From positions 1-5,591 of IMG/VR virus record IMGVR_UViG_2585427777_000009: a stretch of 5,591 nt of DNA; one strand, 5' to 3'. A program made the position numbers and the translations under genes. Position 1 is the first letter of the stretch, and each line of letters opens with the position of its first letter. The notes beneath the pieces are model-generated. The model did not search any database, was not told the origin of the DNA, and saw only the letters and a program-made list of their open reading frames with translations. This document shows, one piece after another, positions 1 through 5,591 of the stretch. Source of the stretch: a virus (lineage: Duplodnaviria; Heunggongvirae; Uroviricota; Caudoviricetes).

Positions 1-17
1 ACCTTGGTTTAAGAGAA
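1..17. other. Left crossover site in inverted orientation, truncated by the window start (central TT at positions 4-5)
   Basis: Positions 1-17 (ACCTTGGTTTAAGAGAA) are the exact reverse complement of 5114-5130. The outer 9 bp of the site would lie left of the window. Confidence 0.65.
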
Positions 18-148
18 CTCGGTACCAGCGGTGAAAAGATCCCCCTGTTGAGTACGGCTAACACATGGAGTGCGCGCCAGACTTTCAACGGCGGGATCAC
101 CGGGGCGCTGACAGGGAACGCCGACACCGCGACGAAATTAAAAACAGC
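1..148. repeat. Left arm of the segment-flanking inverted repeat (pairs with 4983-5130)
   Basis: Hand-aligned reverse complement of 4983-5130 matches 1-148 with 3 mismatches (positions 53, 107, 140), all third-codon-position synonymous changes. Similarity drops to protein level only beyond 148. Confidence 0.9.
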
Positions 149-2237
149 CATAAACATTAATGGCGTCAGGTTCGATGGTTCGGCTGACATTACGTTGACT
201 CCTAAAGATCTGGACGTTTACAGCAAAAGCGAAATAGACAATAAAAAAGGGATGAGAAAATACACTTTTTCAGCGCCTGCAAATGCAGTAAGCGGTAAGT
301 GGTATCCTATAGTCTTTCGCCGATCTAGAGGCAGTACCGATGAATTAGCCTCACGAGTTGTGATAACTACTTATTCCTCAGCTGGCGGATACGCCATGAA
401 TAATTGTGAATTTAATGGTTTTGTTATGCCTGGCGGTTGGTCTGATCGCGGTTCATATGCGGCTGGTTTTTTCTCAATATATTCTACTGCTGAGCGAGCT
501 ATACACTCGATTATTTCAAGTGTGAAAGATGACGATTTGTGTAGTGTGTTTTACGTTGAAGCCAGAGCATTTCCTATCAAGATATTTGCTGAGGAGGGCT
601 TGAACGTAATTGTTCCAACTACTGACTATACCGTTGGTCAAGCCACCTATAAGTGGGGGGCCACAGATCCAGTAGCAGAAAGTACAAATACTCAAACCAT
701 TCTGGATTTTAAAAATGGACGTGGTTATTACTGCTCACATCAGTTTGTTTCAAGCCTTTCAGGAAATGCAGCAACAGCAACGAAATTAGCAAGTTCAATA
801 AACATAGGTGGTGTATCCTTTGATGGTTCAGCCGATATAGATTTGCCTGGTGTTAATGCGACTGGTAATCAGAACACCACGGGGAATGCGGCGTCTGCCA
901 CGAAATTACAAACGGCAAGAACCATTGGTGGCGTTTCATTTGATGGCTCCGCCAATATCAACCTGCCGGGCGTGAATATTGCTGGTAGCCAGAACACGAC
1001 TGGTAATGCTGCAACCGCAACGAAACTTCAGACGGCCCGCACAATAGGCGGCGTGTCATTCGATGGTAGTGCCAATATCGACCTGCCAGGTGTGAATAAA
1101 ACAGGTAATCAGAGCACAACCGGTAATGCTGCAACTGCAACAAAACTGCAAACAGCACGCACAATAGGCGGCGTGTCATTCGATGGCTCCGCCAATATCA
1201 ACCTGCCGGGTGTAAACATTGCTGGTAACCAGAACACAACCGGTAATGCAGCGACAGCGACCAAGTTACAAACCGCTAGAACTATAAATGGGGTGTCGTT
1301 TGACGGTTCTAAAAACATTGAGCTAACTCCAAGGTCTATAGGCACGATCAACTCAGCAACAATGTCTTTTAGTGGTGGTGCCGGATGGTTCAAGCTGGCA
1401 ACTGTAACCATGCCACAAGCCAGTTCCGTGGTTTACATAAGCCTGATTGGTGGCGCAGGGTTTAACGTTGGCTCCCCGCAGCAAGCAGGCATCTCTGAGC
1501 TGGTTCTGCGTGCAGGAAATGGGAACCCCAAAGGTATTACTGGTGCATTATGGCGACGGACCTCGGTTGGATTTACTAATTTTGCATGGGTGAATACATC
1601 CGGTGATACCTATGACATTTATGTAGAAATAGGTAATTACGCCACAGGTGTTAATATCCAGTGGGATTATACCAGTAACGCCAGCGTAACGATTCATACA
1701 TCACCAACTTATACAGCGAATAAACCAACAGGCCTGACAGATGGAACTGTATATGTAATTTACAGTTCGCACATTAAACCGACTGCTGCTGATGTTGGGG
1801 CGTTATCATTATCTGGAGGTCAATTGAATGGTGCACTGGGCATCGGTACATCCAGTGCTCTTGGCGGTAACTCGATTGTTTTGGGTGATAATGACACGGG
1901 CTTTAAACAAAATGGCGACGGTAATCTGGATGTTTATGCTAATAACGTCCATGTTATGCGCTTTGTCTCCGGTAGCATTCAAAGTAATAAAACCATAAAT
2001 ATTACGGGGCGTGTTAATCCCTCGGATTACGGTAACTTTGATTCCCGCTATGTGAGAGATGTCAGACTTGGCACACGTGTTGTCCAGACCATGCAGAAAG
2101 GGGTGATGTATGAGAAAGCAGGGCATGTAATTACAGGGCTTGGTATTGTCGGTGAAGTCGATGGTGATGACCCCGCAGTATTCAGACCAATACAAAAATA
2201 CATCAATGGCACATGGTATAACGTCGCACAGGTGTAG
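1..2237 (+). CDS. Tail fiber protein, alternative variable C-terminal cassette (Sv'-like), silent in this orientation; 5' end is the crossover site and it has no start of its own
   Basis: Frame is open from position 3 ([22 protein letters not shown]...), identical to the minus-strand fiber across the inverted repeat. The TTG at 48 used by the ORF track is not a real start. Contains repeated [32 protein letters not shown] fiber-shaft motifs and a C-terminal [26 protein letters not shown]...NGTWYNVAQV module shared with the other fiber. Stop TAG at 2235-2237, followed 3 nt later by a tfa gene. Confidence 0.85.
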   Translation, partial: LGLRELGTSGEKIPLLSTANTWSARQTFNGGITGALTGNADTATKLKTAININGVRFDGSADITLTPKDLDVYSKSEIDNKKGMRKYTFSAPANAVSGKWYPIVFRRSRGSTDELASRVVITTYSSAGGYAMNNCEFNGFVMPGGWSDRGSYAAGFFSIYSTAERAIHSIISSVKDDDLCSVFYVEARAFPIKIFAEEGLNVIVPTTDYTVGQATYKWGATDPVAESTNTQTILDFKNGRGYYCSHQFVSSLSGNAATATKLASSINIGGVSFDGSADIDLPGVNATGNQNTTGNAASATKLQTARTIGGVSFDGSANINLPGVNIAGSQNTTGNAATATKLQTARTIGGVSFDGSANIDLPGVNKTGNQSTTGNAATATKLQTARTIGGVSFDGSANINLPGVNIAGNQNTTGNAATATKLQTARTINGVSFDGSKNIELTPRSIGTINSATMSFSGGAGWFKLATVTMPQASSVVYISLIGGAGFNVGSPQQAGISELVLRAGNGNPKGITGALWRRTSVGFTNFAWVNTSGDTYDIYVEIGNYATGVNIQWDYTSNASVTIHTSPTYTANKPTGLTDGTVYVIYSSHIKPTAADVGALSLSGGQLNGALGIGTSSALGGNSIVLGDNDTGFKQNGDGNLDVYANNVHVMRFVSGSIQSNKTINITGRVNPSDYGNFDSRYVRDVRLGTRVVQTMQKGVMYEKAGHVITGLGIVGEVDGDDPAVFRPIQKYINGTWYNVAQV
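762..1331 (+). repeat. Tandem 120-bp in-frame coding repeats (40-aa phage fiber-shaft repeat), about 4.75 copies
   Basis: Units at 762-881, 882-1001, 1002-1121, 1122-1241 and a partial unit 1242-1331. Each encodes [40 protein letters not shown]. Exact nucleotide runs of about 30 bp recur between units (e.g. cgcacaataggcggcgtgtcattcgatgg at about 1037 and 1157). Confidence 0.9.
2040..2237 (+). repeat. Internal diverged inverted repeat: conserved fiber C-terminal module (pairs with 3332-3529)
   Basis: The last ~65 codons of the two fibers are about 85% identical at nucleotide level by eye and about 90% at protein level (DSRYVRD(V/I)[18 protein letters not shown]...NGTWYNV(A/S)QV). Confidence 0.8.
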
Positions 2238-2240
2238 TTT

Positions 2241-2768
2241 ATGCAGCATTTAAAAAATATTACTGCGGGTAATCCAAAAACTGTTGCCCAGTATCAACTG
2301 ACAAAAAATTTTGATGTTATCTGGTTATGGTCCGAAGAGGGAAAAAACTGGTATGAGGAAGTAAGTAATTTTCAGGAAGACACGATAAAGATTGTTTACG
2401 ATGAAAATAATATTATTGTCGCCATCACCAGAGATGCTTCAACGCTTAACCCTGAAGGTTTTAGCGTTGTCGAGGTTCCTGATATTACTGCCAACCGACG
2501 TGCTGATGACTCAGGTAAATGGATGTTTAAGGATGGTGCCGTGATTAAGCGGATTTATACGGCAGACGAACAGCAGCAACTGGCAGAATCACAAAAGGCA
2601 ACTTTGCTTTCCGAAGCCGAATCCGTGATTTTGCCGCTGGAGCGCGCTGTCAGGCTGAATATGGCAACAGATGAGGAACGCAGCCGACTGGAAGCATGGG
2701 AACGCTACAGCGTTCTTGTAAGCCGCGTGGATACGGCAAAGCCAGAATGGCCACAAAAACCTGAGTAA
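2241..2768 (+). CDS. Tail fiber assembly chaperone (Tfa; Mu U / lambda Tfa family), partner of the plus-strand fiber cassette
   Basis: 175-aa ORF starting at ATG 2241, 3 nt after the fiber stop. N-terminus [41 protein letters not shown] with internal [18 protein letters not shown] and C-terminal PEWPQKPE are recalled from memory as typical of enterobacterial phage Tfa proteins. N-terminal ~105 aa are ~75% identical to the minus-strand paralog. Stop TAA at 2766-2768 is followed by a hairpin terminator. Confidence 0.85.
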
Positions 2769-2772
2769 AAAT

Positions 2773-2796
2773 AAGGCCCGATAACGGGCCTTTTCT
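2773..2796. terminator. Bidirectional rho-independent terminator between the convergent tfa genes
   Basis: 8-bp stem (aaggcccg 2773-2780, complementary to cgggcctt 2785-2792) with loop ataa. It is flanked by T-runs on both strands (ttttct on plus; tattttt on minus, from 2764-2772). It lies between the plus tfa stop (2766-2768) and the minus tfa stop (2796-2798). Confidence 0.6.
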
Positions 2797-3329
2797 CATT
2801 CTGGTTGTTCGGGAAACGTTACTGGCAGGCTGGAGGTGTCTGTAGATTCGACTTTCTGCGCATAGAGCATCCACTCGGTTAATTTTTGTTTATTCTCGTC
2901 GGAAATGATGCCCAGCCGTAGCTGTGAGTCCCATAGCTGGGTTTTATCCCTGACAAGTTGCAACAGGCTTTGCTTTTCATTCTCTGCCTGCTGCCTCTGT
3001 TCCTCCTCGGTATAAGTTCGCTTTATCACTACGCCATCTTTGAACATCCATTTCCCCGAAATATCAGCCCGGCGATTTGCTGTAATATCAGGCAACTCAA
3101 CGACACTTAAACCTTCTGGATTAATTGCCGATACATCTTTATCCATAGCAACAATTATTCCATCTACAGTGTAAGCCAGTTTTATTGTATCTTCCTGAAA
3201 GTTTTTCACTTCCTCATACCAGTTTTTTCCATCTTCGGACCATAACCAGATAACATTAAAATTCTTTGTTAGCTGATATTGTTCAACGGTTTTTGGATTA
3301 CCTGCGACAATGTTTTTTAAATGCTGCAT
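2796..3329 (-). CDS. Tail fiber assembly chaperone (Tfa; Mu U / lambda Tfa family), partner of the minus-strand (expressed) fiber
   Basis: 177-aa ORF. Its ATG (complement of 3327-3329) lies 2 nt after the fiber stop (3332-3334). N-terminal half is a paralog of the plus-strand Tfa ([41 protein letters not shown]); the C-terminal ~70 aa are divergent. Ends in ...PEQPE, with the stop at 2796-2798 abutting the central hairpin. Confidence 0.85.
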
Positions 3330-3331
3330 GA

Positions 3332-3529
3332 TTATACCTGCGATACGTTATACCATGTTCCGTTAATTAACTTTTGTATTGGTCTGAATACTGCCGGATC
3401 ATCGCCATCAACTTCACCGACAATGCCAAGCCCCGTAATTGCATGACCTGATTTCTCATACATCACGCCTTTTTGCATAGTCTGAACAACACGTGTGCCC
3501 AGGCGAATATCTCGTACATAGCGAGAATC
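3332..3529 (-). repeat. Internal diverged inverted repeat: conserved fiber C-terminal module (pairs with 2040-2237)
   Basis: See the partner feature at 2040-2237. Confidence 0.8.
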
Positions 3530-5591
3530 CGATTCAGCTTTGGTATATGCACCAACATCCCCCGCAGAGGGTTTGCGGGTTGTGGTGTAAAACTCTGACC
3601 AGTTAGCTTCAAAGCCATAACCATCACGCGCTGAACGATAAAAGATACCGCCGTTCTTATAATTCACGCGGAACTGTACAGCAGGGCAACTCCCCGCATT
3701 CATATTGAAGTGGAGGATTAATGTCGATGCACCACTGATATCTGCATCATAAACACCGCTATTCCAGTTCCAGCCAACAGCTTTATCATTTGCAACCCTG
3801 CTTCCTGTTTGCCCTAAAGCGAATGCAGGCTGCTGGTTTTTCGTGTTGTAGTCTCGTCGCCAGCCAGGAGCATAAGCATCACCATGATTAATATAAGTGA
3901 ATTGAGCGTTAGTGATGCCGCCTCCGGTGGAAGTGCTTGGTGTTGTTACACGGATGGTCATGGCACCTTTATTGCCCATAACTTCAATAACGCAACCCGC
4001 AAGGTGAATAAGTCCACATCCGGTGTCAGTAATAATTTTATTATTGCCGTATGACCATGAGCATTTACACATCCAGTATGGATGATTGAAGGCCCACTGA
4101 GATTCCAGCCATTCAATAAATTGCGCCGTCGTCCAGTTTCCTGCACCTGTGCTAATAGAGCCATGAAAAGAGCGGCAAGCACCTATTGTTTGCGTAAATT
4201 TATCTTTGTTTGGAATATCTGCGCCGTTCTGGTTTTTCTGTAATGCTCCTGCGGCTAATTCTACAGTTTGCTCAAGATTTAAATCTGCCGCCGTTAGCTC
4301 AATATTTTTAGAACCATCAAACGACACCCCATTTATAGTTCGAGCGGTTTGTAACTTGGTCGCTGTCGCTGCATTACCTGTTGTATTCTGATTGCCAGTG
4401 GCATTAACACCAGGTAAATTAATATTCGCAGTACCATCAAAGCTAACTCCGCCGATAGTTCTTGCCGTCTGTAGTTTTGTAGCGGTCGCTGCATTGCCAG
4501 TTGTATTCTGATTGCCAGTGGCATTCACACCAGGAATGGAGTCCCTTGATGTATAGACCTGCGCCCAATCTGACCATGCAGCATCTGTTGTATCCCTACG
4601 GGAACGAATGAATGCCGGTGCATGTGCGCCACTTGTACCACTCCACCCAATAAGCAACTCTCCCTCACCAGCAGCACTCGCCCCTTTCATATGCAGAACA
4701 TTGCCGAATGATGTTGGGTAACTATTGCTATATGCTTCATACATTTGAATACCAGCAGTACCCTGAGTAGAGCCACTTAACGCCGTTACGGGCCCGCGTG
4801 ATACCAATGTATTAATGTTGATATCGCCTGAGCCATCAAACTTAACACCATTGATGTTTCTCGCCGTCGCAAGTTTTGTCGCGGTAGCAGCATTCCCCGT
4901 GGTGTTCTGGTTACCAGTTGTATTTACACCTGGAAGATTGATATTGGCCGAGCCATCAAATGCCACACCGCCAATAGTGCGTGCTGTTTTCAATTTCGTC
5001 GCGGTGTCGGCGTTCCCTGTCAGTGCCCCGGTGATCCCGCCGTTGAAAGTCTGGCGCGCACTCCATGTGTTAGCCGTGCTCAACAGGGGGATCTTTTCAC
5101 CGCTGGTACCGAGTTCTCTTAAACCAAGGTATTGGATAACGGCCAGTGTGCTTGTTTTAGCCAGAATATCGCGACCGACTGACGTTAAATCAGTCTGCGC
5201 TACCGTATCCTTACCAGTGAAATAAGGCAGTTTGTTTGCACCAGTCGCAAGGGCAGCGAGCGCGGTTAAAGTTGCATCCAGAGGCTGTTTGCCTGCCAGC
5301 GCATTTGTCATTGTTGTCGCAAAGTTCGGGTCATTGCCCAGTGCTGCTGCAAGCTCATTCAGGGTATCAAGAGCTTCAGGTGATGAGCCGACCAATGCAG
5401 AGATAGCAGCTCTTACATAAGCGGTCGTAGCAATCTGCGTGTTATTCGTACCCTGTGCAGCGGTAGGCGCAGTAGGTATTCCCGTTAATGCAGGACTTGC
5501 TAAAGGCGCTTTAAGGGCCAGAGCATTGTTGATAGTTGTGCTGAAATTCGGGTCGTTATTGATCGCAGCCGCTATTTCTTTCAGCGTATCC
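3332..5591 (-). CDS. Tail fiber protein in the expressed orientation: conserved N-terminal region (continues beyond the right window edge) fused in frame to a variable C-terminal cassette; 5' partial
   Basis: The minus-strand frame stays open upstream of the TTG at 5395 chosen by the ORF track, to the window end (my translation of 5396-5461: ...[22 protein letters not shown] then [25 protein letters not shown]), which is a typical phage tail-fiber N-proximal motif. It crosses the crossover site at 5114-5139 in frame. It contains two blocks of fiber-shaft repeats and a Cys/Trp-rich distal domain, and ends ...[65 protein letters not shown]. Confidence 0.9.
4292..4537 (-). repeat. Two tandem 120-bp fiber-shaft repeats in the minus-strand fiber (aa ~287-368)
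   Basis: Direct repeats are visible on the plus strand (gcattacctgttgtattctgattgccagtggcattaacaccagg at about 4370 and gcattgccagttgtattctgattgccagtggcattcacaccagg at about 4490). Translation gives [21 protein letters not shown](G/N)GVSFDG twice. Confidence 0.8.
4808..5017 (-). repeat. First block of fiber-shaft repeats in the minus-strand fiber (about 1.75 units), partly inside the flanking inverted repeat
   Basis: Encodes [40 protein letters not shown] followed by [30 protein letters not shown]. The counterpart motif in the plus-strand module is at about 114-203. Confidence 0.75.
4983..5130. repeat. Right arm of the segment-flanking inverted repeat (pairs with 1-148)
   Basis: See left arm. 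The repeat extends outward into the crossover site (to 5139), whose left-hand counterpart is outside the window. Confidence 0.9.
5114..5139. other. 26-bp DNA-invertase crossover site (hix/gix/cix family), right copy: TTCTCTTAAACC-AA-GGTATTGGATAA
   Basis: Imperfect palindrome of two 12-bp half-sites around a central AA dinucleotide (5126-5127). It closely resembles hixL (TTCTTGAAAACCAAGGTTTTTGATAA) and gixL (TTCCTGTAAACCGAGGTTTTGGATAA) as I recall them. It sits exactly at the outer boundary of the inverted repeat and inside the fiber reading frame. Confidence 0.75.

Follow-up and report, generated by a model that had tools for sequence, protein, structure and literature searches.

A 148-nt inverted repeat just inside the cix sites of a P1/P7-type tail-fibre switch is very probably a shared coding stem that ends at a module junction

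Results and Discussion

We analysed a 5591-nt viral contig (hereafter the window, meaning the whole of that stretch) whose invertible tail-fibre segment is bounded by a 148-nt inverted repeat. Very probably, what is repeated is the DNA just inside each cix of an invertible C segment of P1/P7 type: a coding stem shared by two alternative fibre ends, with its inner edge at a module junction. This reading draws on the anatomy of the segment, the identity of the cix site, the conservation of the block throughout the family, the recurrence of the junction and the occurrence of both orientations in nature. The window adds a new pairing of cassettes to a well-known system, and its repeat-length class already occurs in P7. 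As a textbook host-range switch, the finding is in itself of little weight.

Extent of the repeat

The repeat has the following two arms.

1–148, plus strand: left arm (arm A), the first 48–49 codons of Sv', in frame from base 3
4983–5130, minus strand: right arm (arm B), the first 48–49 codons of Sv, currently fused to Sc

A preliminary description of this DNA had reported a 148-bp inverted repeat with silent differences at positions 53, 107 and 140, and had named a pairwise alignment as the check. An ungapped comparison of the window with its own reverse complement (bases 1–400 against 4731–5130) upheld it: the arms are identical at 145 of 148 positions, those three mismatches are the only ones, and the identity is no shorter than claimed and contains no non-synonymous difference. 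Read in frame from base 3, the changes are AGT/AGC (Ser) at 53, GCG/GCA (Ala) at 107 and TTA/TTG (Leu) at 140, each a transition at a third codon position. Uninterrupted identity runs of 52, 53 and 32 nt are left between the arms, and the overall identity is far beyond chance.

From 149 onward the arms mismatch at close intervals (149–152, 154, 155, 159–161 and so on). A repeat search extended the same arm pair to 184 nt at 90% identity; the extra stretch reflects weak similarity of the fibre-repeat motif, with 52% identity over 149–181. The abrupt divergence after 148 that had been described is therefore real, but the "protein-level similarity" said to lie beyond it is not what we found. The likeness is at the level of the motif for about 35 nt, and from about position 192 arm A is unrelated to arm B.

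Anatomy of the segment

BLAST searches against phages, plasmids and E. coli genomes matched the window to the tail-fibre C segments of P1-like phage-plasmids, including P1, P7, RCS47, D6, JL22 and many plasmids of E. coli and E. albertii. Roughly 600 P1-like plasmids matched, and the C segments of P1, P7 and D6 among the matches are annotated as such. No record in the phage, plasmid and E. coli genome collections covers more than 85% of the window, which indicates that its cassette combination is a mosaic. The invertible C segment is 5130 bp long (1–5130), and the layout of the window is Sc / cix / Sv-U / U'-Sv' / cut cix.

3–2237, plus strand: Sv', silent alternative tail-fibre C-terminal part, open from the contig edge, with tail-fibre PHROG matches
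759–1327, plus strand: 120-nt fibre repeats in tandem, about 4.3–5 copies, within Sv'
2241–2768, plus strand: U', tail-fibre assembly chaperone paired with Sv' (Pfam PF02413, 6.6e-35; phrog_136)
2773–2792, no strand assigned: G+C-rich hairpin with a T-run after it on either strand, where U' and U converge
2796–3329, minus strand: U, tail-fibre assembly chaperone paired with Sv (Pfam PF02413, 4.8e-34)
3332–5130, minus strand: Sv, variable tail-fibre C-terminal part, expressed in the present orientation (gp37_C domain; PHROG tail-fibre match)
5131–5591, minus strand: Sc, constant part of tail-fibre gene S, partial, its frame open to the contig end

On the minus strand a frame is open from the right edge through Sc (5591–5131) and across cix into Sv, and U comes next. 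Sc matches S of P7 and RCS47 through base 5591, and its protein is 100% identical in two related loci (L090, L091). Two alternative fibre C-termini thus face in opposite directions; both are in frame with Sc, and each has a chaperone of its own. Both frames read LGLRELGT... across the cix core, and U and U' are both Caudo_TAP chaperones (E ~1e-34). Sv' is without a start of its own, the TTG at 48 not being a genuine one. The hairpin at 2773–2792 looks, from its sequence, like a bidirectional terminator.

Inverted likeness returns at the far ends of the two cassettes. The last 66 or so codons of Sv and Sv' are 83–84% identical (2040–2236 and 3333–3529), as are the first two thirds of U and U' at 77% (2241–2587 and 2983–3329). 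This points to the C-terminal tip and its chaperone as a conserved pair, with unrelated middle domains between the shared ends.

Sigma-70-like promoter matches are depleted in the window (1, against 9.7 ± 3.1 in shuffled sequences), which fits a promoterless segment of a late operon. A promoter or terminator role for the repeat was considered and rejected: there is no promoter-like site inside it. The minus-strand hairpin at 147–164 is weak and is among 6 predicted where 6.1 were expected.

Crossover sites, invertase and inversion

That the repeat lies inside the crossover sites, as had been proposed, was confirmed by the positions of the two cix sites.

5114–5139, plus strand: complete cix on the Sc side, TTCTCTTAAACC AA GGTATTGGATAA, core at 5126–5127
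1–17, plus strand: left cix, truncated at the contig edge; of the outer half-site the final 3 nt (ACC), then the TT core at 4–5 and the inner half-site GGTTTAAGAGAA at 6–17

The complete site sits at the Sc/Sv junction and consists of two imperfect 12-bp half-sites round a 2-bp core. It is the single such site in the window (0 expected by chance), has 2 mismatches to the palindromic consensus and is identical to the annotated Sc-side cix of P1. At the left end, the TT core and the inner half-site of a putative second, inverted site are present; the outer half-site falls off the contig end, and the site is complete in five near-identical relatives (L171–L175). In all relatives the outer half-sites differ, being TTTCAATCCTAA beside cin and CCGTTATCCAAT beside Sc, so the repeat truly begins at window base 1. 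No internal cix-like site was found within the segment at up to 3 mismatches. A Min-like multi-site inversion system, for which three or more sites would be expected, was ruled out because the only sites are the two terminal ones.

The cin gene is not within the window. Three relatives that are 98–99% identical to window 1–3334 or further (L171–L173) carry, directly left of arm A, a 186-aa gene with resolvase and HTH_7 domains whose product is identical to P1 Cin at 185 of 186 positions. A Fis-dependent recombinational enhancer is annotated in P1 and P7, in P1 inside cin, and a counterpart would fall outside the window.

By the mechanism that we propose, the serine invertase Cin, encoded just left of base 1 and off the contig, would exchange strands at the 2-bp cores of the inverted 26-bp cix sites (4–5 and 5126–5127). 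Inversion would fuse Sc in frame either to Sv with U or to Sv' with U', and the exchange of Sv for Sv' would switch receptor specificity. P1 Cin inverts the C segment at cix and thereby swaps S and S' (bioRxiv 10.1101/2022.07.24.501295), and Cin-type inversion that fuses Sc to Sv or Sv' has been described for P1 (PMC6906374). What is stated here of P1 and P7 draws on their GenBank annotations, on our measurements and on these two papers. We infer that Cin also acts in the source strain of the window. The recombination signal in each arm would be only the 12-bp inner half-site at its outer tip; the rest of the 148 bp would be duplicated because both fibre ends start with the same stem of 48–49 residues, which is apparently common to every Sv cassette of the P1 family. 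What lies inside the repeat is coding sequence common to both alternatives, and in this account it would be neither a signal nor needed for inversion.

Both orientations of the segment are seen, between strains. The window and L171–L173 have the order cin-armA...armB-Sc, and L174 and L175 have Sc-armA...armB-cin. In L175 the 5130-nt segment is 99.84% identical to that of the window but reversed; Sc there continues into arm A as an 1148-aa S', and the contig stops precisely where arm B has its outer end. The pair formed by L175 and the window is natural, between-strain evidence that the segment inverts. Arm-specific variants (T53) remain with their cassette in both orientations, which argues for a crossover at the core of cix rather than within the repeat.

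The same observation bears on the possibility that the 148-bp homology is itself functional, either because Cin-independent inversion could use it for homologous exchange or because it aids the invertase in synapsis as an accessory element. Synonymous diversity in the block is reduced, and identity runs of 52, 53 and 32 nt are long enough in principle for RecA-dependent recombination. We nevertheless regard a function of this kind as highly improbable. Haplotypes kept with their cassettes in the window and L175 place the crossover at cix, Din-type switches work with arms that diverge after about 17–20 nt (in LGLGE-type prophages) and Mu with 34 bp, and P1-like elements with one and the same Cin have repeats of anything from 88 to 859 nt.

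Repeat length in the family and the 148/149 boundary

P1-type cix sites were located in 170-odd loci and the ungapped repeat inside them was measured; about 20 segments were complete, so the lengths below are a sample and not a census. Block 1–148 is 88–100% identical in all 46 P1-type arms sampled.

Repeat of about 148 nt, 9 elements: the window, P7, RCS47, L088, L172, L175; L103 (151); L171/L173 (145)
Repeat of 181–192 nt, 7 elements: pS51_2, D6, two E. albertii/ETEC plasmids, pCFS3292-3, L075, L079
Repeat of 592 nt: JL22
Repeat of 616 nt: P1
Repeat of 859 nt: L074
Repeat of about 88 nt: L174

A comparison with related phages had been suggested as a way to see whether the repeat boundary is conserved. 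The end at 148 does recur in P7, RCS47 and other relatives, and other length classes exist beside it. The length of the repeat had also been placed between those of Mu (34 bp) and P1 (0.62 kb); the measured lengths of 34 bp and 616 bp agree.

The length classes follow the peptide that comes after the block. Arm A falls in the xNING class (I/RNINGVRFDGS...), as do both arms of P1 and the majority of the others; arm B and the cin-side arm of P7 belong to the RTIGG class; minor classes are also present. The xNING class splits again after 181–192. An RTIGG arm opposite an xNING arm gives a repeat of 148, two xNING subclasses give 181–192, and the same cassette twice gives about 600 or more. Repeat length is thus set by which two cassettes are paired and is not a fixed, or tuned, property of the switch.

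The boundary itself lies within the fibre repeats.

111–230, plus strand: first 120-nt (40-aa) fibre-repeat unit of arm A, in the middle of which the inverted repeat ends
4863–4982, minus strand: extra 120-nt repeat unit of arm B (arm-B 149–268), absent from P1-type arms, its 5' edge being the end of the repeat

Arm B, a cassette of the RTIGG class, has an extra canonical 120-nt unit starting at 148/149, and arm A is a cassette of the xNING class. Relative to a P1-type Sv arm, the unit is an insertion after about 146–148. Gapped alignment gave 97% identity between P1 arm 1–146 and arm B 1–146 and 78% between P1 arm 147–229 and arm B 267–349; over the longer stretch, arm B 267–540 matches P1 arm 147–420 at 71–78%. 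The peptide motif that precedes the 148/149 junction is found again in both fibres, in their tandem arrays of 120-nt units. On this evidence the first 40-aa fibre repeat contains, at 148/149, a junction between modules that recurs among the elements, and this junction likely arose by recombination between repeat units. The junctions at 148/149 and 181/192 could guide the design of chimeric P1 tail fibres for transduction or antimicrobial delivery.

Several further features of the relatives were observed. Four of them switch to unrelated sequence within the segment (L174, GCA_003591415.1, 5266–5973; L171/L173, 9587–11682; L172, 9094–9295), at points that correspond to window positions of about 4531, 3827 and 3334–3532, and are mostly 97–99% identical in the rest. 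Several of these switch points lie at the edges of repeat arrays and are further mosaic junctions in the fibre genes. In a diverged relative (L156, 972–3727) the segment spans 2.8 kb and the repeat 121 nt, and both outer flanks read CCGTTATCGAAT; two Sc-type flanks are an unusual configuration. In five P1-like loci (L091, L098, L099, L106, L107) an Sc-side cix was recognised but no partner for it in the 7.5 kb downstream; these may be fixed, rearranged or longer fibre loci, or may have a divergent partner site.

Searching IMG/VR with the U' protein returned mostly loci that lack a P1-type cix, and few of 80 loci were usable. An exact 52-nt scan of species-representative genomes gave 2 matches and is uninformative on spread across species. 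One exact 52-nt match to the repeat block lies in a 3745-nt contig (L180, JAFAFU010000077.1) binned into a "Bacillota bacterium" MAG; the contig is probably a misbinned fragment of an enterobacterial phage-plasmid.

Origin of the three differences between the arms

Sites 53 (C/T), 107 (A/G) and 140 (A/G) are polymorphic among the 26 haplotypes of the block. At nt 140, G is present in 11/11 RTIGG arms and 9/28 xNING arms (Fisher p = 1.5e-4), and at nt 107, A is present in 5/11 RTIGG and 2/28 xNING arms (p = 0.012). The three differences are therefore family polymorphisms, partly linked to cassette class, and not private mutations.

The sharp boundary had been taken to suggest homogenisation by gene conversion or recombination. 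One form of this is RecA-dependent gene conversion between the two arms within a single element, the boundary being the edge of a conversion tract. Identical arms do occur, only in elements with long repeats: P1, JL22, L074 and pCFS3292 have no arm differences within 1–148. In addition, nucleotide diversity (pi) is about half as high in the block (0.051; third positions 0.124) as in the adjacent Sc (0.10; third positions 0.244). Several observations are at odds with arm conversion in the window. Arm B is identical over 1–148 to arms in L007, L008 and L088, and arm A has 1 difference from L007 and L008 but 3 from its own partner, so that each arm is nearer to arms of other elements (0–1) than to the other arm of the same segment. 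Differences between own arms in elements of the 148 class (3, 6, 6, 5 and 12) are spread around the median of 5 found between elements. The sites at which the arms differ are polymorphic in other elements too, with nt 140 tracking cassette class, and the same boundary is found in unrelated cassette combinations, where it coincides with the insertion of a repeat unit. Conversion between arms is, in our judgement, improbable. From the earlier suggestion, recombination in the form of cassette exchange stands; homogenisation between the arms of this element is not supported, given the closer arms elsewhere and own-arm differences near the median.

We attribute the low diversity of the block to shared ancestry of the backbone and frequent recombination between elements. 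Because diversity is half that of Sc, which the reading of the repeat as a stem ending at a cassette junction does not itself explain, there is room for a modest additional homogenising force, or for DNA-level constraint, on the block.

Selection on the stem peptide

Among random single-base changes in the 48 codons about 25% would be silent, and 36% among transitions. Three silent differences out of three are thus only mildly unlikely (p = 0.016, or 0.047 for transitions). The stronger evidence for constraint comes from other loci. Three diverged lineages (L077, L127, L089) have 79–83% amino acid identity at 65–68% nucleotide identity, with third-position identity of 0.27–0.31, near saturation; one diverged lineage has 81–83% amino acid identity at 67% nucleotide identity and 0.29 at third positions. 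Within the P1 family 33/48 variant states among the 26 haplotypes are synonymous. Retention of the amino acid sequence despite nearly saturated third positions, together with the predominance of synonymous states, indicates purifying selection on the stem peptide, as had been proposed for the junction peptide of about 48 aa. Peptide selection cannot account for the 98% nucleotide identity of the arms.

A second inverted repeat within the fibres

The segment contains another inverted repeat, at 1242–1327 and 4293–4378, which is 86 nt long with 3 mismatches (1278, 1304, 1316), all synonymous. In either fibre it is read in frame as the final 40-aa repeat unit, immediately ahead of the distal domain, and on the inner side it stops abruptly at 1327/1328. 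A homologous crossover there would re-pair proximal and distal fibre modules.

We also considered, as a rather speculative and on balance unlikely idea, that the 148-nt block is a family-wide homology "handle" that is kept uniform by recombination between elements and serves to swap cassettes together with their 40-aa units, and that with the 86-nt repeat secondary inversions might follow. If so, homology-driven secondary inversions would make four fibres from one segment and not two.

Assembly breaks at the repeat

The window is a complete draft contig (JOST01000095.1, 5591 nt, assembly GCA_000713855.1) that starts at the first base of the repeat. The contig of L175 ends at the mirror position, and those of L176 and L178 start at bases 54–56, beside polymorphic site 53. 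The left edge of the window is most likely an assembly break caused by the repeat, and there seems to be a systematic tendency for short-read assemblies of P1-like elements to break up at this place. The repeat explains why draft assemblies of P1-like phage-plasmids break exactly here.

These breaks raise the question of whether the repeat is itself an artefact of a short draft contig, given that the window is the entire 5591-nt contig, that it starts exactly at the repeat boundary and that sister assemblies break there or at bases 54–56. We reject this explanation as having virtually no likelihood. Finished genomes (P7, RCS47 and complete plasmids) and at least 5 independent assemblies have the block with this same boundary, and arms that differ at three sites have not been collapsed into one copy.

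Comparison with known systems

P7 (AF503408) and RCS47 are the nearest counterparts of the window. Their cix sites and gene layout (cin / Sv'-U' / U-Sv / Sc) are those of the window, and their repeat, likewise of 148 nt, stops at the same base, one arm being RTIGG and the other xNING. In P7 the arms differ at 6 sites (3 in the window), and the segment is 4015 bp long (5130 bp in the window). The distal cassettes of P7 are unlike those of the window, about 52% of which aligns to P7; compared with P7, Sv' of the window has a unique domain of about 190 aa and five 40-aa repeats.

P1 shares the identical Sc-side cix, the first 148 nt of its arms are 97% identical to those of the window, and its Cin is 99% identical to that of the close relatives of the window. 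Past the extra repeat unit, its Sv is 71–78% homologous to the Sv arm of the window. P1 has the same proximal cassette in both arms, which makes its repeat 616 nt long, whereas that of the window stops at 148.

The cassette of arm A is shared with pS51_2, pCFS3292-3, L007, L008 and L075, at 99% identity over 182–260. D6 and P1-like phage-plasmids of E. coli and E. albertii have the same backbone order, with lydA-lydB adjoining cin as in D6. Unlike in the window, the second arm is also xNING in elements of the D6, pS51_2 and pCFS3292-3 type, and the repeat is 181–192 nt.

More distantly, the G segment of Mu (Gin/gix) and the Pin-type switches of e14 and P2-like elements use the same serine-invertase logic, with homologous chaperones and partly homologous distal fibres. 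In Mu the repeat is essentially the crossover site, measured at 34 bp, and the 148 nt of the window do not conform to that type. Nor does the window resemble the arms of LGLGE-type prophages, which diverge about 17–20 nt in. The Min system of p15B and the shufflons likewise shuffle the C-termini of tail fibres or adhesins by site-specific inversion, but they do so with several crossover sites, where the window has only the two terminal ones.
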